Source of the DNA: Chloroflexota bacterium
GTDB lineage: Bacteria; Chloroflexota; Dehalococcoidia; UBA2979
NCBI GenBank assembly: GCA_027593235.1
Contig: JAQCIU010000010.1
Coordinates: 35,498 to 99,497 of the forward strand
DNA length: 64,000 bases
Direction: 5' to 3'
Made by a program: the position numbers and the translations under genes. The notes below the pieces were generated by a model. It worked only from the letters and a program-made list of their open reading frames with translations, made no database searches and was not told the DNA's origin. How positions within the stretch are numbered: the stretch's first letter is position 1; the number at the start of each line of letters is the position of its first letter. Positions 28,225 to 41,505 of the stretch are shown in pieces.

Positions 28225-29671
28225 ATGCACCGCCCCCTCTTCGTCATCCTCGCCTGTGCGACCCTCCTCCTCGCCGCCTGCAGTGCCGAGGAACACCCAA
28301 CCTCGACGCCCACACAGACCACGGGACAGACCGCCACGCCGGCTGTCTCACCCAGCCCCGAGCCGACGACCCGCGCTCCGTTCGTCCTCCAAACGCCGGC
28401 GCCCACCCCAGAACTCCTCCACCTGTACGCCACGGTCTGGCTGGTCGACATCCGCGACGGGACACAGACGACGCTCACGGGATTCCTCGGTACCGCCCCG
28501 TATCTGGCCGAGTTCACACGCGACGGTGGGATCCGGATCGAATACAGCGCCCAGGGCGAAATCCGCGAGATCACCTTCGACTCAGATGGCAACCAACTGG
28601 GCGAATCGCCGGTACAACCTCGATGCGTCAACGCCGACGCAGGCACCCGCGTCGACGGTCGCCTCTACACCGACACGTCCTGCGGAGCGATCTCTCCAAA
28701 CGGCGGCTTCATGACCTACGCGATCGACGCCGGCGAGGTCGAGGTTAATGGGCGTTACTCCGTCCCAACCTGGGACCAGTGGGTCGTCGACCTCGACACC
28801 GGCGACCGTCGACTCCTCAAGGAAGGCATGCGCCACTGCGGTGGATGTGACTTCCGTTTCGGGCCAATCTGGCCGGCGAGCGGTCGCTATGTCGTCGTCC
28901 CTGAGTTGCTGGATGGGGGCGAGGTCTTCCTCTTCGACCTGTCCACCGATGGCAGTCGCAACCTTGCCGTGGACGATCGCTCCACGCAGCTCTCTTCGGC
29001 TCTCACCTGGTCGCCCCGCGGCGACCGCCTACTCCGCCCCGGCCCCGACGGATCGACCATCCTCGAGGACTTCGACGCCGGCACATCGCGCCAGCTCGCC
29101 GACCTGCCCTGGCCGGCCGCCTTCGACCCGACTGGCACTTACGCGTATTCCCCCGGCATGGGCAGTGAGTACGGAGCCCGGCCCCCACCAGCGAACAACG
29201 ATCGTCGACGCCGCGACCGGAGCGACCGTCGGGAAGCGCCCCGGAACGCCATCCCCTCACCGCCTCTGGGATCAGACCGGCGATCCGATCGTCGCAGCCG
29301 ACGGCGACTTCGTCGCCGCGCTCTCCAACTCCGGCGACTGCGATGGCGTACTCGTCTACAACCCGGGCCACCCAGGTGCGGCCTGCCTCGAGGGCGCCGT
29401 CGCCCCCGTCTTCTCCCCGGACAACTCCCTCGTCGCCTTCACGCGCGAGACCGGTCGCACAGGTCCAACCAGTGGCCCCCACCTGGAGAGCTACGACGGC
29501 CTTCCGATCTGGGAAGTCGCCATCTTCGACCGCACCGACAGTGACATCACCGTCGTCGCGGATGTCACCGTGGTCGCCGAAGCTGCCGTCGGCTACTACT
29601 TCCCTGACCTGACCTGGAACGAGGACGGATCGAAGCTCCTCATCCGCTGGCCCAACGTGTTCGGGTTATAG
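28225..29671 (+). pseudogene. Beta-propeller (TolB/WD40-like) lipoprotein with one frameshift
   Basis: Lipobox LAAC; ISPNG, WSPRG, FSPDN, WNEDG repeats split over two frames; removing one C from the C5 run at 29150-29154 joins them. Confidence 0.7.
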
Positions 29672-30315: not shown

Positions 30316-31215
30316 TTAGGTCGCGCGCTGGCGCGCACGGTCCGCCAGGTACTCCCGGGTCCGTGCCGGTCCGCCCGACTCCGCGCGGAAGATCGCCGGA
30401 TTGAAGAGCGTCACACCAGCCGCCTCGAGGCGATCGAGTTCGGCGTCCAACTCCGCCTCGTTGCCGACCAGTGCCGCGTCCCCCGGCCCCGCCGCGCCCC
30501 CGTGATCGAGGAGCGCGCGGTACGAGGGCAGCGTGCCGTACATCGCGAACTGCTGCGCTGCCTGTTCGCGCGCCGCGGCCGCGTCGTTGGTCAGAGCGAT
30601 CGGCAGCCCGGCGATGATCTCCGGCGCGGGCCGGCCGGCGGCCTCGGCGGCGCGACGGATCCGAGGTGCCACGTGCGACTCAACCGCCTGTGCGGTTCCC
30701 ATCCAAAGGATCGTACCCTGCGCCTGCTCACCGGTCATGCGCAGCATTCGAGGCCCCAGCGCTGCCACGCCCAGCGACACGGCATCCGCAGGTCCCGGTC
30801 GGGGCTCGCCGTGATACGAGTAGAACTCGCCCGCGAAGTCAACCGCGTCACCTCGCAGCAGCGGCGCGAGAATCCGCAGGTACTCCTCCATCCGCGAACC
30901 GGGACGATCGAATGAGATCCCGAGCGACGCCTCGATGAACGAGGGGTGCGAGAGCCCGATCCCGAGCGTGAACCGATTGTTCGAGGCGTCCTGCGCTACC
31001 CGCGCCTGGTTCGCCAGCACCGAGGGGTGAATCCCGAAGATCGGTACCACCGCCGTCAGCAGCCGAATCGATTCCGTCTGCGCCCCGATCAGCGCCAGCA
31101 TCGCCGTCGAATCACCCGGCAGTGCGTATGCCGCGAAACCCTCTTGTTCCGCCCGCTGGGCGTCCGCCACTGTCCGTGCCGCCCCCGGCGCTCCGCCCGT
31201 CAGCCCGATCCGCAT
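30316..31215 (-). CDS. LLM-class (probable F420-dependent) oxidoreductase, TIGR03564-like
   Basis: AVVPI..HP, FTLGIGLSH, AALGPRML, YGTLPSYR. Confidence 0.88.
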   Translation of the reverse strand: MRIGLTGGAPGAARTVADAQRAEQEGFAAYALPGDSTAMLALIGAQTESIRLLTAVVPIFGIHPSVLANQARVAQDASNNRFTLGIGLSHPSFIEASLGISFDRPGSRMEEYLRILAPLLRGDAVDFAGEFYSYHGEPRPGPADAVSLGVAALGPRMLRMTGEQAQGTILWMGTAQAVESHVAPRIRRAAEAAGRPAPEIIAGLPIALTNDAAAAREQAAQQFAMYGTLPSYRALLDHGGAAGPGDAALVGNEAELDAELDRLEAAGVTLFNPAIFRAESGGPARTREYLADRARQRAT

Positions 31216-31359
31216 CGCCGCCGTCCTTCGCTCGCTAAATTCGCGTTCCGCGGCGTTCACGGTACACGCCCGCCAGGGCCTGCCGAGGGGCAACTTCGTG
31301 GCCGACCATGCACACTGGTTCGACGCCACCACGAACCCCAGCGAGGAAGCGCGCCGCAG

Positions 31360-32076
31360 ATGCTCCCACCCGGCACCCGCACGGTGCTATTCGACTTCGA
31401 CCGCACGCTCGGGCAGGCGAAATCGCACTTCGGTATGTACGTGCGCGCCGCCGCCGAACACGGCGTCTCCGCAACCGAGGCCGCGCTCGCCGAGGCGGAG
31501 CTCGACGACGCCTGGGCGCAATGGATGACCCCCGAGGGCCCGGCGCACCCGGACGCGTCGCGCGACGAAGCAGCGTTCGCGGCGGTCCGCCGCGCAATCG
31601 CGGCCACCCGCCTTCGCGGTGCGGGCGTCGACTGCGACGACGCGACCCTCGATCGCATCACCGCGCGGATCGCCGACCTCGAGGGGGAGGCCGAGAACTA
31701 CCTGCTGTACGACGACACAATCCCCGCGCTTGAGCGGCTTGCCCGGCGCGGCATCCAATCGTTGATCGTGTCGAACCACGTCTGGCGGCTCCCCGAGATC
31801 ATTCGCGGCCTCGGTGCCTCCGCCCGCTTTGAGGGCGTGATCACCAGCGCGCGCGCCGGCTTCCGCAAGCCGCACCCCGCCATCTTCGAGGCCGCGCTGC
31901 GCCTCGCCTCGACCCCCGTGGAGGCGACGATCTACGTCGGCGACTCCTACAAGCACGACGTCGAGGGTGCGCGCGGGGTCGGTATGGCCTCGATCCTGAT
32001 CGATCGCGACTCCCGCTACGCCACCGCCGAGGTCGACGTCCCCGTGATCAAGAAGCTGACGGAGTTGATCCCATGA
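31360..32076 (+). CDS. HAD-family hydrolase
   Basis: VLFDFDRTL, IVSN, RKPHPAIF, YVGDSYKHD. Confidence 0.9.
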   Translation: MLPPGTRTVLFDFDRTLGQAKSHFGMYVRAAAEHGVSATEAALAEAELDDAWAQWMTPEGPAHPDASRDEAAFAAVRRAIAATRLRGAGVDCDDATLDRITARIADLEGEAENYLLYDDTIPALERLARRGIQSLIVSNHVWRLPEIIRGLGASARFEGVITSARAGFRKPHPAIFEAALRLASTPVEATIYVGDSYKHDVEGARGVGMASILIDRDSRYATAEVDVPVIKKLTELIP

Positions 32077-32534
32077 GCGTCGCGCTGGTGACCATTCCTG
32101 AGGAAGAGTTCGACGATTTCTTCGAGCTCTTCGCGGACTATCACGACGAGATGTCCGAGTACGACGACGACCCCGAGGACACTGACGCCTACCTGGAGCG
32201 CTACCGCCCGGCCATGCTCGCCGACTTGAGCGGCCGCGAGCTGTACTGGATCGAGGTCGACGGCGAGACCGCCGGCTTCGTCGTCGCGCGCTACCTGCCC
32301 GATTGGCCCCACGAGGAACGGATGGTCGCTTCGATCGCGGAGTTCTACGTCGACCCGGACTTCCGGCGGGCGAACGTCGGCACCGAGGCGGTCGAAATCC
32401 TGCTCGCAGAGCACCGTGATCGCGGCACTTACCTCGTCGAGGCAGACATCCTGCGCGCGAACGAACCGGCGAAGGCCTTCTGGTACGGCCTTGGCTTTGA
32501 GCTCCAGTTTCACCAGACGGGCCGCAAGCCCTAG
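32073..32534 (+). CDS. Single-domain GNAT acetyltransferase
   Basis: IAEFYVDPDFRRANVG, NEPAKAFWYGLGF; ATGA overlap with the HAD gene. Confidence 0.88.
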   Translation: MSVALVTIPEEEFDDFFELFADYHDEMSEYDDDPEDTDAYLERYRPAMLADLSGRELYWIEVDGETAGFVVARYLPDWPHEERMVASIAEFYVDPDFRRANVGTEAVEILLAEHRDRGTYLVEADILRANEPAKAFWYGLGFELQFHQTGRKP

Positions 32535-32591
32535 CCCATTCGTTATGCCGATCGATTCGCTCTACTTTCTTACCGTCCCTACTCTCCCGGC

Positions 32592-33743
32592 ATGAACGAA
32601 CCTCTGCATCTGCGCCCGCCCCGGCTTGCCGGGGAGGTTGCGCCGCCGGAATTCGAGGGTGCGCTCGCCCGCGAGGCCACGCGCGATGACGCCCCCGCGA
32701 TCCTCGGCGTCTTCGAGGCGGCGTTCGATCAGTGGCCGCCATGCGACATCGATGTAGCGGCCCTGGAACACCTGCACTGGAAGATGGAGACGGCGGACGG
32801 CGAGACCATCAGTCCGCATGATGTCGTCGTGGCGGACGGCAAGATCGCCGCGGCCATGCTCGCCTGGATCGGTCGCGGCAAGCTGGGCGATAACGTCTTC
32901 GTGACTGATCGCGCGGTCGACCTTGCCGTGCATCCCGACTACCAGGGCAGGCGTTTCGCCCGCCTGCTGATGATGCCGTCGACGGTTCGTAACGAAGGGC
33001 GCACCAGCTACTTCAGTTGGGACACCCGCCCCAACGCGCCACCCGTGCTGCACATGTCGGACGGCACCCGCTTCGCGCGAGGCGTGCGCGTCTGGGGGCG
33101 CCCGCTCGGCCCGATCCGAGCCATCGCCGGACTGCGCCATCCCGCCGGCCGGCACTACCTCGCCCGCCAACTCTCCACCCTCGGGCGGCGCGACGGCGCC
33201 GCCCTCCGTGCTGCCGCTCGCGATATCGAGGTCCGACCGCTGACCGCGTTCGATCAGCGCGTGGATGCACTCTGGATCGAGGAGCGCACCCGTTTCGACA
33301 TCGCTCGCCGTCGGAACGCGGCCTGGCTGAACTGGCGGTACCTGGATCCGCGCGCCGGGCGCATCCTCACCATCGGTGCCTTCGAGGGTGACGCGTTGCT
33401 CGGCTATCTCGCGGTGCGTCGGGCCCCACGCGGCGCGGATAACCGCACCGCCGCGCTCCTCGATGTGCTCTCGCGGGGCGACCGGCCGGCCGCGGTCACC
33501 GCGCTCGTCCGCGCGGCGGCACGCGCGATGCGGAGCGACGGCGCGACACGCCTCGATGCGTGGCTCGCCCCCGACCACCTCTACGAAGCCGCGTTCGAGG
33601 CCGCCGGCCTCGCGGACACCGGGATCCTCACGAACGTGGAATTCGGCACGAAGCGCCTCGGTGCGGCGCCGGACGCGCTGGCGATCCTTCGCGACCCGGC
33701 AAGTACCATGCACGTCACGCTCGGCGACTTCGACTGGATCTGA
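32592..33743 (+). CDS. Tandem-GNAT family acyltransferase, paralog 1 of 7
   Basis: WP...EHLHWKM, DLAVHPDYQG, FDQRVDALW, WLNWRYLDPRAG, HVTLGDFDWI*. Confidence 0.85.
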   Translation: MNEPLHLRPPRLAGEVAPPEFEGALAREATRDDAPAILGVFEAAFDQWPPCDIDVAALEHLHWKMETADGETISPHDVVVADGKIAAAMLAWIGRGKLGDNVFVTDRAVDLAVHPDYQGRRFARLLMMPSTVRNEGRTSYFSWDTRPNAPPVLHMSDGTRFARGVRVWGRPLGPIRAIAGLRHPAGRHYLARQLSTLGRRDGAALRAAARDIEVRPLTAFDQRVDALWIEERTRFDIARRRNAAWLNWRYLDPRAGRILTIGAFEGDALLGYLAVRRAPRGADNRTAALLDVLSRGDRPAAVTALVRAAARAMRSDGATRLDAWLAPDHLYEAAFEAAGLADTGILTNVEFGTKRLGAAPDALAILRDPASTMHVTLGDFDWI

Positions 33744-33784
33744 CCTCCGTTCGGTCGCCACCCCGCCGAGCTGGGGGCCACCGA

Positions 33785-34858
33785 ATGACCGCGCACCTCG
33801 AACCGGTCCTCCGAGAGGCGACGCCACAGGACCTCCCGGCGATGATCGCCGTGATCGAACGGGCATTCGACCACTGGCCGGCCTTCGACATCGACGTCCC
33901 GCCGATCGAGCACCTGCGCTGGAAGACGGCGCCGCATGACGGGCTCGCGCCGCGGCACCTCGTCGCTGAGATCGATCAGCGGATCGTTGCCGTGCGCCTT
34001 CGCTGGGAGAGCCGGATACAGATCGGGCCCCGGGAATATGTGTCTGAAACCGGCGCCGACTTCGCCGTCGACCCGGAGTTCCAGGGCCGCGGGCTCTCCC
34101 GCCTGCTGAGTTCGGCGGTCCACGACGCCCTCGTCGCCAATCCTCGTCCCGGCTTCGGCACCCTGAGCAACGCGCCCCAGGTGCAACACATGAACGAACC
34201 CGGGTTGCTGGAGCGCACCCTCACTGTCTGGCACCGCGCGTTCACTCCGCGCGCGCACGCCGCGGTCCACTTCCGCGAAGGCGGGCTGGGCCAGCTCGGA
34301 CGGCTCGCCGCCACGGCCGCGTCATCCCGCCTGCCGGCACGCCATCGCGCGAGCACCCGCATCGAGCTGATCGGCCGCTTCGACGAACGAACGGACGCGC
34401 TGTGGGAGCGCGCGCGACGGTCCTGGCACGTCATCACCTCACGGCACTCGAGCTACCTCAACTGGCGCTTCGAACGTCCCGCTTCGGGGAACGGCGACGT
34501 GCTCTTGCTGGCGGACGGCGATCGCGCCTCGGCCTATGCCGTGCTCCGCTACTCCGCCGGCCAGGCCGCCCTGGTCGATCTGCTCTGGGACCGCGAGGAA
34601 CGAGGCGCCCTGCGAACGATCGTGCAGGCGGCGCTCGCTCGTGCTCGGAACGCCGGCGCAACCGGCCTCGATTGCGCGCTTCCCGCCGGCCACACCGCCG
34701 AGGGCGAACTCCGCCACGCCGGGTTCGCCGTGGTCGGCGAGCAGACGATGCTCCTCGGCAGCCACGACAGCGGAGAAAACCCGCCCGAGGCGATCGATCT
34801 GATGGCTGATCGCTCGCGCTCGATGCACCTCACCATGAGTGACTTCGACCAGCACTAA
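33785..34858 (+). CDS. Tandem-GNAT family acyltransferase, paralog 2 of 7
   Basis: EHLRWK, DFAVDPEFQG, FDERTDALW, YLNWRFERP, HLTMSDFDQH*. Confidence 0.85.
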   Translation: MTAHLEPVLREATPQDLPAMIAVIERAFDHWPAFDIDVPPIEHLRWKTAPHDGLAPRHLVAEIDQRIVAVRLRWESRIQIGPREYVSETGADFAVDPEFQGRGLSRLLSSAVHDALVANPRPGFGTLSNAPQVQHMNEPGLLERTLTVWHRAFTPRAHAAVHFREGGLGQLGRLAATAASSRLPARHRASTRIELIGRFDERTDALWERARRSWHVITSRHSSYLNWRFERPASGNGDVLLLADGDRASAYAVLRYSAGQAALVDLLWDREERGALRTIVQAALARARNAGATGLDCALPAGHTAEGELRHAGFAVVGEQTMLLGSHDSGENPPEAIDLMADRSRSMHLTMSDFDQH

Positions 34859-34921
34859 GCTGGCCCAGCGCGCGACGCAGTTCTGAGCGATGTAGTTGTC
34901 CGCGATGCAGTGGGAGCAGCG

Positions 34922-36001
34922 GTGACGAACCCTTCCAACCCCGGTCCCGAGCCGACGATCCGTGACGCCACTATCGAGGACGCCCCGGCCATGCTCGAGG
35001 TGATCACGGCCGCATTCGAGTGCTGGCCAGACTTCGCCCTCGAGGTGCCCCCGATCGATCACCTGCGTTGGAAGATGGCGTCGCCGGACGGTGTCCCGCT
35101 GCACCACTCCGTCGTGCTGGTCGGCGACCGCGTCGCCGCCGCCCAGCTCCGCTGGGCGCGCCGCCTCTCCGTACGCGGCGAGACCCGCATCGGCGAGACC
35201 GGTGCCGACCTCGCGGTGCACCCCGACTTCCGAGGTCAGCGCCTCTCACGACTGATCAGCGATCGAGACGACGCCCGACTCCGCGCCGATCGCGTCACCG
35301 GATTCGCGATGCAGAGCAACGCCGCGCAGGTGCGCCACCTCAACCGCGACCGGATCACGCGCGAGCTGGACACCTGGGTGCGACCGTTCGGCTGGCGATC
35401 CTTCGTCGCGACCCACCGCAACGCTGGTGGCTGGGGCCAGGCGCTCCGCGCTTCCGTGCGGCGCGTGATGTCCCGCACTCCCGGCCTCTCCGCGGCCGCG
35501 CGAATCGAAGTCCTCGACCGGTTCGACGCGCGCACCGACGACATCTGGGCGGCGGCGCGCGACGCGTACGACGTGATCGCCTTCCGCAACGCCGAGTACC
35601 TCAACTGGCGGTTCGCCCGCCCGGTCACGGGCCACCCAACGATCCTCGCGATCTTCGAGGGCGATCGGGCGCTCGCCTACGCCGTGGTGCGGCACGCCGG
35701 CGGGCGCGGCGATCTGATGGACTGGCTCTGGCGGCCCGACGCGGCTGCGGTCGTGCCCGCGCTGCTCGGCGCGGCGATCTCGCACCTCCAGCAGGGCGGC
35801 GCGACGGACGTCACCTGCTGGCTACCCCGCCGCCATGACGCGGAACAAGCGCTCCGTGCAGCCGGCTTCGCGCGCACGGGAACCCAGGAGATGCTCTTCG
35901 GCATTCGCAACAGCGCCGAGGAACGCACCCCGGACCTCGATGTCTACGACGACCCGGCGAGCACCCTGCACATCGCGATGTGTGACTTCGACTGGACATA
36001 G
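34922..36001 (+). CDS. Tandem-GNAT family acyltransferase, paralog 3 of 7
   Basis: DHLRWKM, DLAVHPDFRG, FDARTDDIW, YLNWRFARP, HIAMCDFDWT*. Confidence 0.85.
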   Translation: MTNPSNPGPEPTIRDATIEDAPAMLEVITAAFECWPDFALEVPPIDHLRWKMASPDGVPLHHSVVLVGDRVAAAQLRWARRLSVRGETRIGETGADLAVHPDFRGQRLSRLISDRDDARLRADRVTGFAMQSNAAQVRHLNRDRITRELDTWVRPFGWRSFVATHRNAGGWGQALRASVRRVMSRTPGLSAAARIEVLDRFDARTDDIWAAARDAYDVIAFRNAEYLNWRFARPVTGHPTILAIFEGDRALAYAVVRHAGGRGDLMDWLWRPDAAAVVPALLGAAISHLQQGGATDVTCWLPRRHDAEQALRAAGFARTGTQEMLFGIRNSAEERTPDLDVYDDPASTLHIAMCDFDWT

Positions 36002-36044
36002 CGGGGTATCCTCGAATCCCTGGGCGAGGAGCACCGAGGGCAGC

Positions 36045-37124
36045 ATGACCACGACCGTCCAGCCGGCCATCGAGCCGATCATCCGCGACGCAACCGAGCA
36101 CGATGCCCCCGAACTGCTCGAGGTGATTGAGGCCGCGTACCCGAGCTGGCCGGCGTTCCCCCTCGAGACCCCCACGATCGATCACCTGCGCTGGAAGATG
36201 AGCCCGCCGGGCGACATCCCGCTCCATCACGCCGCGATCGAGGTAGGCGATCGGATCGCCGCCACTCAGCTTCGCTGGGTCTGCCAGGTTCAGGTCGGCG
36301 ACGAGGTCCACATTGGCGAAACCGGAGCAGATCTCGCCGTGCATCCGGACTTCCAGGGCATGGGCCTGGCGCGCCTGATCAAGGACCGCGACCACGATCG
36401 GCTCGCTGAGAACCAGATCACCGGCTTCGGGATGATGAGCAACGCTCCACAGGTGCAGCACATGAACGAGGGCTCGGTCAGCCGCGAGATGACCACCTGG
36501 ACGCTCCCCTTCGCCCTCCGTTCCTACCTCTCCGTCCATCACGCCGCAGGTGGTCCGGTGCAGGCCGCGCGCGCCCTCTGGCACCGCGCGCGCCGCGCAC
36601 CCGCACCGCTCCCAACGCCCGGTCGCATCACCGTCCTAGAACGGTTCGACGAACGGGCGGACGCGCTCTGGGAAGCCGCGCGCCACGCCTATGACGTCAT
36701 CCCGTTCCGCAACTCCCAGTACCTCAACTGGCGCTTCGCGCGACCGTTCAGCGGAGAGCCTGTGATCCTCGGGCTCCTCGATCGCGGGCGGGTCCTCGCC
36801 TACGCCGTGGTCCGCCGCGCCGGCGACCGCGGCGATCTGATGGACTGGCTCTGGCGACCGGAGGCGACAGCGATGGTCCCTGCACTCCTCGACGCCGCGA
36901 TCGAGCACCTCCGCGCCAGCGGCGCGCGCAACATCACCTCCTGGCTGCCACGCGGCCACCGCGCGGAGCGCGCGCTCCGATATGCCGGCTTCGCACCCGT
37001 CGGCACGCAGCACATCCTCTTCGGCACCCGCGATCGAGGCGAAGCCGCCGCCGGAGTGCTGGACGTCTACGAGGATCCGCGGAGCCGCCTTCACCTCACG
37101 ATGAGCGACTTCGATCACGCCTAG
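36045..37124 (+). CDS. Tandem-GNAT family acyltransferase, paralog 4 of 7
   Basis: DHLRWKM, DLAVHPDFQG, FDERADALW, YLNWRFARP, HLTMSDFDHA*. Confidence 0.85.
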   Translation: MTTTVQPAIEPIIRDATEHDAPELLEVIEAAYPSWPAFPLETPTIDHLRWKMSPPGDIPLHHAAIEVGDRIAATQLRWVCQVQVGDEVHIGETGADLAVHPDFQGMGLARLIKDRDHDRLAENQITGFGMMSNAPQVQHMNEGSVSREMTTWTLPFALRSYLSVHHAAGGPVQAARALWHRARRAPAPLPTPGRITVLERFDERADALWEAARHAYDVIPFRNSQYLNWRFARPFSGEPVILGLLDRGRVLAYAVVRRAGDRGDLMDWLWRPEATAMVPALLDAAIEHLRASGARNITSWLPRGHRAERALRYAGFAPVGTQHILFGTRDRGEAAAGVLDVYEDPRSRLHLTMSDFDHA

Positions 37125-37166
37125 CTTCCCCCGCAGCCGGTTGACCCGGTTCCCTGTGAAGTCGCG

Positions 37167-38276
37167 ATGACCGAGGACCGCCTACCGCCCCCCGACCGAC
37201 GTGTCGTCCGCGCCGACGCCTCCTGGGCGAACGCGATCCTCCCGTTGCTGCAGGCGGCCTTTCCTCGCTGGCCCGCACCAGAGATCGAGGTCAGTCCGTT
37301 CGACCACCTCCAGTGGAAGATGACCGGCGCACCGGGCGCGCCGGATCACCCGCACACCGTCGTGCTCGAGGGCGATCGAATCGTCGCCGTCCAACTCCGC
37401 TGGCTCGCCCACGCCCATGTCGGCGGCGCGGTGATGCCCTTCGACCGAGGGGTCGACCTTGCTGTTGATCCGGAGCGCCAGGGCACCGGGCTCGCGCGGT
37501 TCATCTTCGATGACGACCCGCTGCGGAATCCGCCACTCGGCGACTTCGTCCGCTGGGACACGCCCTCGAACGACGCGCGCGTCCCGCACCTGGAAGCGCA
37601 GCACCTCGCGGGTCGCCGGCTCCGCGTCTGGGTGCGCACGTTCGACGTGCGGACCTTCGCGGCCACCCACCGCCAGGGTGGGCGCAAGCACCTGGCCGTG
37701 ACCGCCGCGAGCGCCCTGCGCCGCAAGCTGTCCAAGCTCCCCCGCGCCAACAGCGCTGCGCCCATTCCGCGCACCCAGGTCAGCGACCTGACCGCGTTCG
37801 ATGCGCGAACGGACGCGCTCTGGGAGGCGGTCGCCCCACAGTTCGATATCGCGCGTGTCCGAGACGCGGAGCTGATGAACTGGCGCTACTTCGACCCGCG
37901 CGCCGGGCGCGCGTCGGCCCTCGCGGCATTCGAGGGCAACACGCTCGTCGGCTACACCGTTTACAAACGCCGCGCGTCCGAGGGCGCGATCCTCGAACTT
38001 GTCGCCCACCCTCGGCACCGGGGCGCCGCGGGAGTGCTCCTCCGCGCCGCGTGTGATCGTCTGCGGGCGGCGGGCGCAAGCAGGGTGCGCTGCTGGCTGC
38101 CGCCCGGACATCCCTCGGAGGCGGCGCTCCCCGCAGTCGGGTTCCGCGATGCCGGTCACCCGCAGCAACTCATCATCGACTACGGCTGGATGCTCGGCGC
38201 AACCGAGGCGGTCGCCGTCGTTCGCGACCCCAGCTCGAAGCTCCACATCACCATGGGCGATCTCGACTTCGTGTAG
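37167..38276 (+). CDS. Tandem-GNAT family acyltransferase, paralog 5 of 7
   Basis: DHLQWKM, DLAVDPERQG, FDARTDALW, MNWRYFDPRAG, HITMGDLDFV*. Confidence 0.85.
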   Translation: MTEDRLPPPDRRVVRADASWANAILPLLQAAFPRWPAPEIEVSPFDHLQWKMTGAPGAPDHPHTVVLEGDRIVAVQLRWLAHAHVGGAVMPFDRGVDLAVDPERQGTGLARFIFDDDPLRNPPLGDFVRWDTPSNDARVPHLEAQHLAGRRLRVWVRTFDVRTFAATHRQGGRKHLAVTAASALRRKLSKLPRANSAAPIPRTQVSDLTAFDARTDALWEAVAPQFDIARVRDAELMNWRYFDPRAGRASALAAFEGNTLVGYTVYKRRASEGAILELVAHPRHRGAAGVLLRAACDRLRAAGASRVRCWLPPGHPSEAALPAVGFRDAGHPQQLIIDYGWMLGATEAVAVVRDPSSKLHITMGDLDFV

Positions 38277-38328
38277 CCTCGCGAGCCCCTGACCGGACGC
38301 CGTTGGTCGCACCCGAACGCAGGAACCG

Positions 38329-39429
38329 ATGCCCGAGCGTGATGGCCACGAGCCCTTGCTCCGACGCGTCACCGTCGCCGAGGCCGCGGCGCTGTTCCCC
38401 GTGATTGAGTCGGCGTTTCCGACCTGGCCGGTCTTCGCAATCGAGGTTCCGTCGATCGATCACCTGCGCTGGAAGATGGCGCCGCCCGCGCACCTGCCGG
38501 ACGACCAGCACGCGGTGGTCGAAATCGACGGAACGCCCGTCGCGATCCAGCTTCGCTGGCCCGGCCGCGGCCACGTGCGCGGCGTCGAACACCCGCTCGA
38601 CACCGGCTGTGACATGGGTGTGCACGCCTCGTTCCGAGGGCTGGGCCTCGCCAGTGTGCTCCGCGACGGGGAGACCGAGCGCCGCAGACTCACCGGCTCG
38701 TCAATCGGCTACGACACGCCGTCGGTCAACGAACGGGTGATCCAGATGTACAGCGACCGCGGCTACCTGCGTCGGCCGTTGGGCGTGTGGGCACGAAGCC
38801 TTAACACCCGCGCCTTCCTCGCGACCCACCGTCGTGCCGGAGTCCTGCACCTCGGTCGCGCTGTTCTCGCCGCCGTTGCGCGCCGTGGGCGACAGCGCGG
38901 ACTCAACGGCGCACCGACGGCACGTGGAACGGTGACGCGTGTGAGCGCCTTCGATCACCGTGCGACGGCGCTCTGGGAGACCGTCCGCGCCGAGTACGAC
39001 TTCGGCCGCATCCGCGATGCCGCCTGGCTCAACTGGCGCTATCTCGACCCGCGCGCCGGCCGCATCGCCGCCTACGCCCTGACCGAGGGCGATCGCCTCC
39101 TCGGCTACGTCGCCGTGCGCCGGGACCTCGATCGAGCGCGGATCCTCGATCTGGTGACCGACCCCTCGGTCGCCGACGTCGGCGCGCGCCTGCTCACGCA
39201 GGCTGTTTCAGACCTCGAGGGCTCTGCGGTCCAGGCGATCGAGTGCCTCCTGCCGCTCGGACATCGTGAGGAAGCCACGCTACGCGCGGCGGCCTTCGCC
39301 CCAACCGGTGAGACTCGTCCGGTACAGATCACGCGCACCCGGCACGCGTGGCTCCCTGAGCTCATCGCCGTCATGGAGGATGCGGCAAGCCCGATCCACG
39401 TGATGCTCGGTGACTTCGACCACGGCTAG
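38329..39429 (+). CDS. Tandem-GNAT family acyltransferase, paralog 6 of 7
   Basis: DHLRWKM, DMGVHASFRG, FDHRATALW, WLNWRYLDPRAG, HVMLGDFDHG*. Confidence 0.85.
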   Translation: MPERDGHEPLLRRVTVAEAAALFPVIESAFPTWPVFAIEVPSIDHLRWKMAPPAHLPDDQHAVVEIDGTPVAIQLRWPGRGHVRGVEHPLDTGCDMGVHASFRGLGLASVLRDGETERRRLTGSSIGYDTPSVNERVIQMYSDRGYLRRPLGVWARSLNTRAFLATHRRAGVLHLGRAVLAAVARRGRQRGLNGAPTARGTVTRVSAFDHRATALWETVRAEYDFGRIRDAAWLNWRYLDPRAGRIAAYALTEGDRLLGYVAVRRDLDRARILDLVTDPSVADVGARLLTQAVSDLEGSAVQAIECLLPLGHREEATLRAAAFAPTGETRPVQITRTRHAWLPELIAVMEDAASPIHVMLGDFDHG

Positions 39430-39588
39430 CGGCCCCGCCGTCGCGCAAACGCGGACGCGAACTCGACGTACTCTCTGCTTCGAAGCAAGAGTCCGACGCC
39501 GCCCATCCGAGACCGCGGGATCACCCTCTCCGCGCGAACGGCGGCGCCCCGGACATAGCGAGGGCATCACACCCTCCGAGGAGTCCAG

Positions 39589-40137
39589 GTGCCCATCTAC
39601 GCCGTCGGCGACAAGGTCCCCAGCATCCATCCCGACGCCTTCATCGCCCCCACGGCGACCATCGTCGGCGACGTCCGCATCGAGGCCGGTGCATCCGTCT
39701 GGTACAACGCCGTCGTCCGCGGTGACACCAGCTACGCCGTGATCGGCGCCGGTGCCAACGTCCAGGACGGCGCCGCTGTCCACGGCCGTGCCGACCAGCC
39801 TGCGCTGATCGGCCGGCAGGCATCGCTCGCCCACAACTGCGTCGTCCACGGCGCCACCATCGGCGAACAGGCGCTGATCGCAAATGGCGCACTGATCCTC
39901 GATGGCGCCGTCATCGGCGCCCGCTGCCTGATCGCCGCCGGTGCGATCGTCCTCCCCGACACCGTCATCCCGGAGGGCATGCTCGCGGTCGGCGCCCCCG
40001 CCGTTGTGAAGCGCTCCATCCTCGGCTCCGCCTCGGAAGAATGGGTGACCGGCAACCCCGGTCGTTACGAGCGGCTCGCCCGCGAACACATGGCTGGCCT
40101 TCGCGAACTCACCCGCGACGAAGCCACCCCGCGATAA
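39589..40137 (+). CDS. Gamma carbonic anhydrase family (PaaY/CaiE/YrdA-like) protein
   Basis: AFIAPTATIVGDV, VVRGD, NVQDGAAVH, AHNCVVHGA hexapeptide repeats. Confidence 0.92.
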   Translation: MPIYAVGDKVPSIHPDAFIAPTATIVGDVRIEAGASVWYNAVVRGDTSYAVIGAGANVQDGAAVHGRADQPALIGRQASLAHNCVVHGATIGEQALIANGALILDGAVIGARCLIAAGAIVLPDTVIPEGMLAVGAPAVVKRSILGSASEEWVTGNPGRYERLAREHMAGLRELTRDEATPR

Positions 40138-40276
40138 CCGCCCTCGAACGCCGACACCACCGCCTCCGCCACTCCCGGCGAAGCCGCCTCGGTGCCGAAG
40201 CCCTCGGGAGTCCCACCGCATTGAGGGCGCTTCGTCGCCGAGGCGCGAAGCGTGATGAGCGGGCGGCACGCCCCCA

Positions 40277-41362
40277 CTAGAAGAAGTCGAAGTCGCCCAT
40301 CGTGACGTGCATCCGTGTCCCCGACGCCTCAAGCGTTGCGACTGCCCCTGCTGGTACGCGATCGCGGTGCTGCAGATCCAGCGTCATCACCCCCACGCGC
40401 GCGAACCCGGAGGCCGCCAGTTCCGCCTCGAGCAGGTGCCCCTCGGTCAGCCAGCACACCACCTGCTCGGCGCCCTGGCGTCGCAGCCGTTCGCTGCCCG
40501 CCACCAAAAGCTGTCGCCCGACCGCGGTTCGCGCAGGGGCCACCACCACATCCAGCACGTTCCCAGTCGCGCCATCGCGCTTGAACACCGCGAATCCGAC
40601 GAGCCGCTCGCCCTCGAAGGCGCCCAGCACGTCCGCTCCCCCGCTCCGCGGATCGATGTATCGCCAGTTCAAGAACTCCGAAGCGCGTGTCCGCGCCACA
40701 TCGAACTGACGCCCTGACACCTCCCACAGCGCATCGACCCGTTCGTCGAATGCCGCCAGTCGCTCCAGCCGCGCCGGTCCGGTGAGCAGGCGCGCCCGCT
40801 GTGGCCCGAACGTCCGCCACGCGTCGCGTCCGAGTGCCCTCCATCTCCGCGCCTGCCGGTGCTGTCGGAGGAAAGCCATCGGCCTGAACCACCGCTCCCA
40901 TACCGGCAGCGGTCGCAGGATGTGATCCGGGATGTCGTTCAGGTGCAGTAGCTGCGGGCTGCGGCTCGGCGTTCCGATCTGGATCTGGCGGGCCTGGGCT
41001 GCCACGCGATCGCGCTCGGCCACCAGGATCTTTCCAATCTGCCGTCCTTGCCACGCCGGGTGCACCGCCACGTCCGCGCCACCGTCGCAGTCGTACTCCA
41101 ACCCAGCTACCCGCACCGGCGCGTACCAGTGCAGACGCGTCCCGACGATCTCGCCCCCGACCGTCACCACATGATTGCCGGACGGCGTGTCCGCCTTCAG
41201 CTCCGTCAGCTTCCATCGCAGGTGTTCGAGCGGTGTCGTGCCCGCCAGCTCGAAGCCCGGCCACCGCGAGAACGCGGCCTCGAGGACGCGCAGTATCCCC
41301 GGCGCATCCTCCAGGGTTGCCTTGCGAAACACCGGTGCCTCTGGCGCCACATCCGTGGTCAT
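40277..41362 (-). CDS. Tandem-GNAT family acyltransferase, paralog 7 of 7 (opposite strand)
   Basis: EHLRWKL, DVAVHPAWQG, FDERVDALW, FLNWRYIDPRSG, HVTMGDFDFF*. Confidence 0.85.
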   Translation of the reverse strand: MTTDVAPEAPVFRKATLEDAPGILRVLEAAFSRWPGFELAGTTPLEHLRWKLTELKADTPSGNHVVTVGGEIVGTRLHWYAPVRVAGLEYDCDGGADVAVHPAWQGRQIGKILVAERDRVAAQARQIQIGTPSRSPQLLHLNDIPDHILRPLPVWERWFRPMAFLRQHRQARRWRALGRDAWRTFGPQRARLLTGPARLERLAAFDERVDALWEVSGRQFDVARTRASEFLNWRYIDPRSGGADVLGAFEGERLVGFAVFKRDGATGNVLDVVVAPARTAVGRQLLVAGSERLRRQGAEQVVCWLTEGHLLEAELAASGFARVGVMTLDLQHRDRVPAGAVATLEASGTRMHVTMGDFDFF

Positions 41363-41505
41363 CGCGCTCCTCAGCGCGAGCAAGTCTAGAGCGCGCGATC
41401 CGTGGCTGATACGGCCAACCAACGCGGAATCGGGCTATCATCCCGCCCGTAGTCCCCCGGGCCATCCCATTCCCTTGGCCCGCTGCATTTCCCGAGGAGT
41501 TCCGC

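Follow-up and report, generated by a model that had tools for sequence, protein, structure and literature searches.

What do seven diverged copies of one acyltransferase-like gene, lined up in a single bacterial genome, do for their host, and by which chemistry? The question is raised by an array at positions 32592 to 41362 of the window, by which we mean the whole 64,000-nucleotide stretch of contig JAQCIU010000010.1 analysed here, from a member of the Dehalococcoidia (Chloroflexota). The paralogues are numbered g1 to g7 in window order. With a rough probability of 0.6, they are cytoplasmic N-acyltransferases that depend on acyl-coenzyme A (acyl-CoA), are built of two GNAT lobes in tandem with a C-terminal tail like that of N-myristoyltransferase (NMT) and Eis, and form a diversifying array. 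The genes are the following (ORF, open reading frame):

32592–33743, + strand: g1, tandem-GNAT paralogue, 383 amino acids (uninterrupted ORF, GNAT Pfam matches, five motifs)
33785–34858, + strand: g2, tandem-GNAT paralogue, 357 amino acids (ORF, GNAT Pfam matches, five motifs)
34910–36001, + strand: g3, tandem-GNAT paralogue, 363 amino acids (ORF, motifs; the protein used for the structure model)
36045–37124, + strand: g4, tandem-GNAT paralogue, 359 amino acids (ORF, GNAT Pfam matches, five motifs)
37167–38276, + strand: g5, tandem-GNAT paralogue, 369 amino acids (ORF, GNAT Pfam matches, five motifs)
38329–39429, + strand: g6, tandem-GNAT paralogue, 366 amino acids (ORF, GNAT Pfam matches, five motifs)
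40277–41362, − strand: g7, tandem-GNAT paralogue, 361 amino acids counted from the ATG, the ORF running on to 41422 (ORF, Pfam, motifs)

All seven ORFs are uninterrupted, six on the + strand and one convergent on the − strand, as described in the initial annotation of this locus, and each of the five motifs listed there is present in all seven proteins, the last one at the exact C-terminus. Neighbouring genes among g1 to g6 are separated by 41–52 nucleotides, and the GC content at third codon positions (GC3) in the called frames of g1 to g7 is 0.81–0.86. The array is not an assembly artefact because contigs from two metagenome runs reproduce positions 32000–41500 without indels: in run X1, which may be the source sample, one 24.7-kb contig covers this stretch with one difference, and in run X3, which belongs to another study, six contigs tile the array stretch with 0–3 differences each and no indels reported. 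Pairwise identities among the seven proteins lie between 33 and 58% (mean 37%), with 32 invariant columns in their alignment; the only closer pairs are g3/g4 (58%) and g2 versus g3 or g4 (42–45%). Weak GNAT matches in Pfam cover both halves of each protein, and a scan of g1 to g7 against NCBIfam gave nothing above cut-off. Since no hydrophobic signal-like N-termini were seen when the translations were read by eye, we take the proteins to be cytoplasmic.

AlphaFold performed poorly on an alignment of the seven sequences (predicted local distance difference test, pLDDT, 61), and this run was replaced by AlphaFold2 on an alignment of 131 family sequences, to which the residue counts given below refer in g3 numbering. 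The resulting g3 model (pLDDT 93.6; predicted template modelling score 0.91) has two complete sets of GNAT elements, at residues 16–159 and 197–332, each in the order β1-α1-α2-β2-4-α3-β5-α4-β6, plus two linker helices; about 30 residues follow the second GNAT. Comparison with known structures returned hundreds of GNAT matches with Z>8. In Foldseek the NMTs (E 5e-13, template modelling (TM) score 0.53–0.57) and the Eis-like protein 2hv2 (TM score 0.61) came out on top together. With VIA-align, yeast NMT reached Z 21.3 over 316 aligned residues (root-mean-square deviation, r.m.s.d., 5.2 Å), the NMTs overall Z 20.5–21.9 with 296–328 residues aligned across model residues 10–361, and MAB_4324c (7q3a) Z 20.7–20.8 over 283 residues (r.m.s.d. 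3.4–3.5 Å, 18% identity). The Eis-like enzymes followed with an r.m.s.d. of 3.6–4.2 Å (2hv2, Z 20.6; Eis2, 19.6; 4my0, 19.2; Eis, 19.0), then the glucosamine N-acetyltransferases 5kf1 and 4zm6 (Z 17.9–18.6) and MshD (1ozp; Z 16.2). Because the top Z scores are tied within about one unit, we describe the predicted fold as a two-lobed GNAT of the NMT/Eis/MAB_4324c kind and assign it to no single one of them. When the family profile was searched against PDB sequences, the best matches included 4my0 and Eis, and NMTs were matched only at E 0.017–0.5 over about 70 residues. The tandem-GNAT fold with NMT and Eis as relatives, which the initial annotation had named, is thus borne out in agreement by model, Foldseek and Z scores.

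FemABX enzymes had been named there as further relatives, and the array might accordingly be read as a set of aminoacyl-tRNA-dependent transferases (FemABX, L/F-transferase or Sbb17-like) that attach an amino acid to some peptide or amine. FemX, FemA and Sbb17 do share a tandem GNAT-like fold with the g3 model, and on metagenomic contig L081 one family member is preceded by an ATP-grasp gene and two Mur-ligase genes. However, the Z scores of 11.6–12.2 for the Fem and Sbb17 structures fall 7–10 units below those of NMT and Eis (19–22), and 119–126 of the 131 sequences keep the CoA-type Q/R-x-x-G loop in the N lobe. In addition, the families matched by sequence (Acetyltransf_1, _7 and _9) are GNATs that use acyl-CoA. 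Fem proteins have a helical arm, of which the secondary structure of the g3 model gave no sign. We therefore regard aminoacyl transfer as very improbable.

The most distinctive feature of the proteins is their C-terminal end. It reads H-x4-D-x-D-x-x in 114 of the 131 sequences and D-x-D-x-x in 120, and in 101 of these 120 the final residue is V, I or A. H354 is present in 125 sequences, D359 in 126 and D361 in 124. The same ending is found in most of 58 copies from six genomes of this bacterial family. In the g3 model the tail (residues 341–363) is confidently placed, with pLDDT values of 90, 97 (residues 351–360) and 81 in the last three blocks. All 48 superposition rows for NMTs, from eight species, end at model residue 361, which pairs with the last aligned residue of the NMT chain: 496 in the human enzyme, 455 in yeast, 451 in Candida, 492 in Aspergillus, 421 in Leishmania, 410 in Plasmodium and 466 in Cryptosporidium. 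Likewise, model residues 14 to 361 align with residues 1 to 402 of Eis, so that 361 pairs with 402, and the Eis-like chains also end at model residue 361. By contrast, for tandem GNATs without such a tail (MAB_4324c, 5kf1, 2wpw, MshD) the alignment stops at model residue 331–339. According to PMC4964394, in yeast NMT the carboxylate of the C-terminal residue, L455, acts as general base, and F402, the C-terminal residue of Eis, is a possible remote base in that enzyme. From the fixed protein end, the confident tail model and the superpositions that end on the C-termini of NMT and Eis, we infer that the tail of g1 to g7 would fold back to the active site as it does in these enzymes.

Conservation of the cofactor loop fits the same design. 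In the N lobe, the loop that follows β4 retains Q/R108 in 126 sequences, G109 in 90 and G111 in 119, corresponding to a β4-α3 loop Q/R-G-x-G for the CoA pyrophosphate. The C lobe is without a glycine P-loop: at the presumed equivalent position, 281, glycine occurs in 2 of 131 sequences, and the consensus there is P-x-R-x-D-V. A loop in the N lobe and none in the C lobe matches the division of NMT and Eis into a donor lobe followed by an acceptor lobe; in Eis, according to PMC4964394, only the N-terminal GNAT is active. W39, W54 and R234 are present in all 131 sequences, and each of g1 to g7 keeps 30–35 of 36 signature residues. G111 is retained in g2, g4, g5 and g6. By eye, the seven-way alignment also places an R-x-x-G-x-A-like loop in the C lobe of g5.

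We propose that the N lobe would bind acyl-CoA, and that the acceptor site may be formed by the C lobe together with the α1-α2 region of the N lobe (W-P ... H-L-x-W-K). Folded back as in NMT and Eis, the tail would then reach the active site and supply the group that deprotonates the acceptor amine, possibly the terminal carboxylate or one of H354, D359 and D361. The array is a variation on a known enzyme kind and not a categorically new system.

Likeness to NMT consists in two GNAT lobes in one chain without a third domain, in the highest structural scores (about 300–318 residues) and in a tail that superposes on the C-terminus whose carboxylate serves NMT as catalytic base (PMC4964394). The family differs from NMT in that it is bacterial, multi-copy and arrayed, and the H-x4-D-x-D tail motif is its own. 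It is conceivable that the paralogues modify proteins in the manner of NMT or Eis, each with a set of its own in which it acylates the N-terminus or a lysine, given that NMTs are the top structural matches, C-terminal tail included, and that Eis also acetylates peptides and proteins (PMC4964394). However, the NMT superposition is loose (r.m.s.d. about 5 Å, 8–12% identity), bacterial small-molecule enzymes fit better (3.4–3.8 Å), no NMT signal appears in Pfam, and the glycosyltransferase fusions and deacetylase neighbours of a sister subfamily (see below) point to sugars. The fast turnover of copy number would also be unusual for protein-modifying housekeeping enzymes. Protein acylation thus appears quite unlikely.

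Pfam matches at E≤0.01 over the 131 members include Acetyltransf_1 in 109 and Acetyltransf_9 in 100; the latter we take to be the Eis-type N-terminal domain. On the window copies Acetyltransf_9 is weak (g7, 31.9 bits; g1, 25.3 bits; cut-off 25), and of the 13 Pfam families matched none is of NMT or SCP2 type. Like Eis and the Eis-like proteins (2hv2, 3n7z, 4my0, Eis2; Z 19–21), members have a second lobe that is GNAT-like but without a glycine P-loop, and the C-termini superpose. Unlike them, they are about 360 rather than about 400 amino acids long and have no SCP2-like third domain (SCP2-type Pfam matches, 0 of 131), and the central Eis domain Acetyltransf_17 is matched in only one of 131. 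The tightest superposition is that with MAB_4324c of Mycobacterium abscessus, a stand-alone bacterial two-lobed GNAT of about 340 amino acids that, according to PMC10727445, mildly acetylates amikacin. It is a single gene outside any array, and its alignment ends at model residue 338, leaving no counterpart of the conserved tail. MshD and the glucosamine N-acetyltransferases are tandem GNAT folds that act on acceptors containing amino sugars (Z 16.2–18.6), and a logic of deacetylation followed by reacylation makes them resemble those family members that have PIG-L or polysaccharide-deacetylase neighbours. They too lack a tail counterpart, and the window copies score only 16–17 bits against TIGR03448 (cut-off 163).

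The neighbouring genes in the window are:

30316–31332, − strand: F420-dependent luciferase-like oxidoreductase (Pfam; TIGR03564, 272 bits, cut-off 234)
31477–32076, + strand: HAD-family hydrolase (Pfam; NCBIfam HAD-IA)
32073–32534, + strand: single-domain GNAT of 153 amino acids, directly upstream of g1 (Pfam Acetyltransf_1, E 7e-14)
39589–40137, + strand: hexapeptide-repeat/γ-carbonic-anhydrase-like gene between g6 and g7, convergent with g7 (family-library matches; syntenic anchor)

The locus is syntenic between the genome of the window (G000), the congeneric genomes G001 and G003 and a metagenomic contig (L058 plus L057), with the common order Mfd, HisA-like, HAD, small GNAT, array, F420-type luciferase-like gene, γ-carbonic-anhydrase-like gene, SDR, SnoaL and MmyB-type regulator. 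The HAD and small-GNAT genes hold the same position ahead of the array in G001, G003 and L058, and the F420 luciferase-like gene follows the array in G001, G003 and L057. The Mfd orthologue of G001 (G001:C6:61482-64934) contains one in-frame TAG, which may be a sequencing error or mark a pseudogene. In the window, the HAD stop overlaps the small-GNAT start by 4 nucleotides, which makes their co-transcription likely, and the two may share a transcription unit with the array; a scan of the locus for promoters and terminators gave nothing above shuffled expectation.

Flanking proteins of G000 are 72–94% identical to those of its congeners (Mfd 86–88%, γ-carbonic-anhydrase-like protein 91–94%, SDR 89–94%, HAD 81–86%, small GNAT 72–82%), whereas the best array orthologues reach only 47–59%; g4, for example, is 59% identical to the copy of G001 at the syntenic locus. 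The number of copies in the slot also varies: 6+1 in G000, 4 in G003, 2 in G001 and 8+1 in L058/L057. In quick IQ-TREE trees, supported by the SH-like approximate likelihood-ratio test (aLRT) only and computed without two aberrantly long rows and partial copies, g1 to g7 fall in a genus-level clade of 25 copies (aLRT 100). Within it, g2 to g4 belong to an orthogroup of 10 rows (aLRT 99), joined by copies from G001, G003 and L058/L057, and the counts per genome or contig are, in ascending order, 1, 1, 3 and 5; g3 and g4 group together (aLRT 98), with one metagenomic copy inside in a later tree. An orthogroup of g5 includes G003-L017_8765 and L057_1653 (aLRT 99), and that of g6 comprises six members, namely g6, two copies from G003, one from G001 and two from L057 (aLRT 100). 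The reversed gene g7 is 74% identical to a copy that is likewise reversed in the syntenic metagenomic contig (L057_7858-8946; aLRT 100). The nearest relative of g1 lies elsewhere in the G003 genome and not at the slot (aLRT 96–97). The array thus consists of old, maintained lineages under birth and death: g1 and at least four old orthogroups (the g2–4, g5, g6 and g7 types) occupy a conserved syntenic slot, and their protein sequences change much faster than those of their neighbours. Such a fast-changing array of variable copy number fits enzymes with a diversifying substrate range, and it provides a clear case of a rapidly evolving enzyme locus in an otherwise conserved neighbourhood.

Ratios of nonsynonymous to synonymous divergence (dN/dS, Nei-Gojobori) are 0.25–0.68 for 15 pairs and below 1 in all 15, values that are rough and show only that dN is smaller than dS because dS (about 0.7–1.4) is near saturation and compressed by a GC3 of about 0.85. 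Together with the four or five orthogroups shared with congeners, they agree with the view of the initial annotation that this is a maintained expansion rather than a recent duplication. The opposite case would be that most copies are decaying or non-catalytic, a neutral by-product of a duplication-prone lineage with several pseudo-enzymes among them. Indeed, the genome has 3 broken copies out of about 18, split copies occur in relatives, the P-loop glycine is lost in three of the seven array copies, and the array orthologues diverge far faster than their neighbours. On the other hand, all seven frames are intact in two independent metagenome studies, the signature residues are largely retained in every copy, and the orthogroups persist across four genomes or contigs. 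Moreover, the g2–g4 clade including its G001 and G003 orthologues has D237R, R239x and G358S/C in common, as well as G256A except in the G003 copy, and the conservation of these changes between species indicates selection rather than decay. We accordingly give decay little probability.

The array is only part of a larger set. A profile built from g1 to g7 retrieves these seven from the genome (3.39-Mb assembly, 89.7% complete) at E 1e-149 to 1e-168 and finds about 11 further copies, one each on C15, C60 and C66, four on C53, three on C42 and a half-copy on C35. By hand count the genome holds 15 uninterrupted full-length copies and 3 broken ones: C53:52298-53483 is split in two frames, C42:11616-12695 has an in-frame TAG, and C35:1368-2216 retains the N-terminal half only. 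The broken copies imply that gene death goes along with expansion, and split copies of the family are also found in the genomes of relatives. A family match at E≤1e-3 was obtained in 12 of 41 genomes (G000 and 40 relatives); two of the three other congeners have 16 and 17 matches, and three other genera of the same bacterial family 10, 9 and 5. In a phylum-wide sample, where at most 8 candidates were scored per genome so that it gives no usable copy numbers, a match at E≤1e-30 is present in only 2 of 251 genomes, one of them G000.

An exhaustive search of representative clusters returned 8,635 at E≤1e-3, 3,531 at 1e-10 and 521 at 1e-30. Look-alike clusters in the ESM-Atlas are labelled only as generic GNAT, their commonest taxa being Acidobacteriota, Actinomycetota and Chloroflexota. 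The family is thus large, and neither Pfam nor NCBIfam includes a model dedicated to it. We found no work on GNAT or acetyltransferase paralogues of Dehalococcoidia or SAR202, no family like this one in the literature on tandem GNATs or the C-terminal carboxylate, and no characterised member, so the family appears to be uncharacterised. If the tail acts as in NMT and Eis, bacteria would make much wider use of this unusual catalytic device than is now recognised.

Arrays of the family recur outside the window, on unrelated metagenomic contigs. A scan of metagenomic contigs with two family peptides gave 29 loci, among them four tandem copies in L074 (65–73% identical), five in L066 (39–67%), two each in L062, L071 and L072 (39–44%) and adjacent partial copies in L070 and L079. 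Diverged tandem arrays in several contigs indicate that arraying is a habit of the family and not a peculiarity of the window. The initial annotation describes a real feature, one that is by no means confined to the window. Its statement that no described system has this arrangement agrees with the literature, in which we found none, but tandem arrays of the family turn out to be common in metagenomic contigs.

Some of these loci offer a lead to the acceptor. A sister subfamily, about 29% identical to g6 and with the tail ...GDSDW[VI], is fused to a GT2 glycosyltransferase in three independent proteins: L074:729-2834 (702 amino acids), L073:2128-4209 (694 amino acids) and library protein P0077 (676 amino acids). 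The fusions came from the metagenomic loci and the representative library; a word-indexed search for longer, fused forms gave none. In L074:1-7768 a sulfotransferase gene on the − strand is followed by the GT2::GNAT fusion, a polysaccharide deacetylase and three GNAT copies, and L080:387-5068 holds a deacetylase, a GT2, a GNAT copy and an M20 peptidase. Gene content suggests that these sister-subfamily clusters form a pathway in which a glycan is made, de-N-acetylated and re-acylated. In G000, the C60 copy adjoins a PIG-L de-N-acetylase and an MFS transporter. A Nod-type assignment of L074 was rejected because its GT2 and deacetylase score far below the NCBIfam cut-offs for NodC-like, PgaC and NodB; only the general logic is comparable.

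Amino-sugar-type amines, either aminoglycoside-like compounds or de-N-acetylated glycans, are the leading candidate acceptors for three reasons: the GT2 fusions, which provide a concrete lead; the proximity of deacetylase genes; and what the closest structural relatives act on, several of them (Eis, the glucosamine N-acetyltransferases 5kf1 and 4zm6, MshD and MAB_4324c) using substrates that contain amino sugars. It is tempting to speculate one step further that N-acylation is combinatorial, with arrayed paralogues of the NMT/Eis design each taking its own acyl group from a very diverse acyl-CoA pool and placing it onto a shared de-N-acetylated amino sugar or similar amine, and with the sister GT2-fusion clusters representing a Nod-factor-like pathway for lipo- or acyl-oligosaccharides outside rhizobia. 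This extension is doubtful at present.

A shared acceptor could also be envisaged without a glycan, the paralogues loading different acyl groups onto one amine, for example an amino sugar or an amino acid, as a conjugation or CoA-recycling battery drawing on an unusually large acyl-CoA pool. Detoxification by glycine N-acyltransferase would be a parallel. In its 3.39 Mb the genome contains 46 luciferase-like oxidoreductases, and CoA-transferase family III is matched 91 times. Expansions of paralogues in these same two families are described for SAR202 Chloroflexota and linked to diverse acyl-CoA pools in PMC5395668, so that the host of the array belongs to a Dehalococcoidia lineage whose catabolic enzyme families are expanded as in SAR202; in the main texts of PMC5395668 and PMC6946804, both on SAR202, neither "acetyltransferase" nor "GNAT" is mentioned. 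A CoA-transferase gene lies directly upstream of, and co-directional with, the copy C53:62120-63418, two more lie beside the C15 copy, and MFS exporters adjoin the copies on C15, C60 and C35. The near-invariance of polar residues in the C lobe and tail throughout the family is what a common acceptor would lead one to expect. However, CoA-transferases occur within 5 kb of 3 of 8 loci, close to the chance expectation of about 1.8 (a hand estimate from the 91 genome matches), and were rejected as a partner. Nor is divergence among g1 to g7 specific to one lobe (38.8% versus 38.9%), and nothing points to which amine would be common. One acceptor with many donors is therefore a rather unlikely account of the array.

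Several observations weigh against reading g1 to g7 as diversifying, acyl-CoA-dependent N-acyltransferases with an NMT/Eis-like tail. The tail is placed from a predicted model and from where its superpositions end, and sequence similarity to NMT is insignificant, with no member among 131 matching NMT or NMT_C in Pfam at E≤0.01. G111 is replaced in g1 (R), g3 (R), g7 (Q) and the entire C53 subclade (three genomes), and CoA binding may consequently be altered in some copies. No conserved tyrosine that might serve as general acid was found in the α4 region of the N lobe, where positions 126–166 are poorly conserved. Across the family, the C lobe and tail contain many polar residues that hardly vary, which points to a common substrate moiety rather than to diversified acceptors. 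Of the specificity-diversified battery put forward in the initial annotation, diversification thus stands as conjecture, the near-invariance of these residues speaking for a shared part of the substrate. The glycan context is that of the sister subfamily, whose identity to the window copies is only about 29%, and the genes around the array in the window do not form a glycan cluster. To these points the coarseness of the dN/dS estimates has to be added.

The remaining neighbourhoods are diverse. Luciferase-like oxidoreductases adjoin arrays or copies in L057, L066, L068, L071, the window and C53. In G000 they occur within 3 kb of 3 of the 8 family loci, which, with 46 in the genome, is only marginally more than chance (about 0.05 in a hand binomial estimate); this association is a lead only, as other lineages may also be rich in these enzymes. 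The lack of a constant partner gene fits stand-alone enzymes that act on small molecules or precursors.

Around the C15 copy (G000:C15:45369-56516, L053), which retains the complete signature, lie an MFS transporter, a chloramphenicol-phosphotransferase-like gene, two CoA-transferases, a C1-type (bleomycin-hydrolase-like) aminopeptidase, an APH-family kinase and a luciferase-like oxidoreductase, surroundings suggestive of a small gene cluster for modifying xenobiotics or antibiotics. The C66 copy (G000:C66:57025-60647, L055) adjoins PRiA4_ORF3-like and integrase-core (rve_3) genes and may thus lie beside a mobile element. In L081:3-5001 the family member is located downstream of the ATP-grasp gene and the two Mur-ligase-family genes mentioned above, a peptide-ligation context unlike the others.

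Upstream of the array, at window positions 28225–29544 and 28748–29671, there are two long overlapping + strand ORFs without a Pfam match. The ORF at 28225–29544 starts with a lipoprotein-like signal that is followed by an arginine-rich stretch, apparently out of frame. In the G003 relative, 332 residues align at 45% identity. The two ORFs (28225–29671) may reflect a frameshift or sequencing error in a lipoprotein gene.

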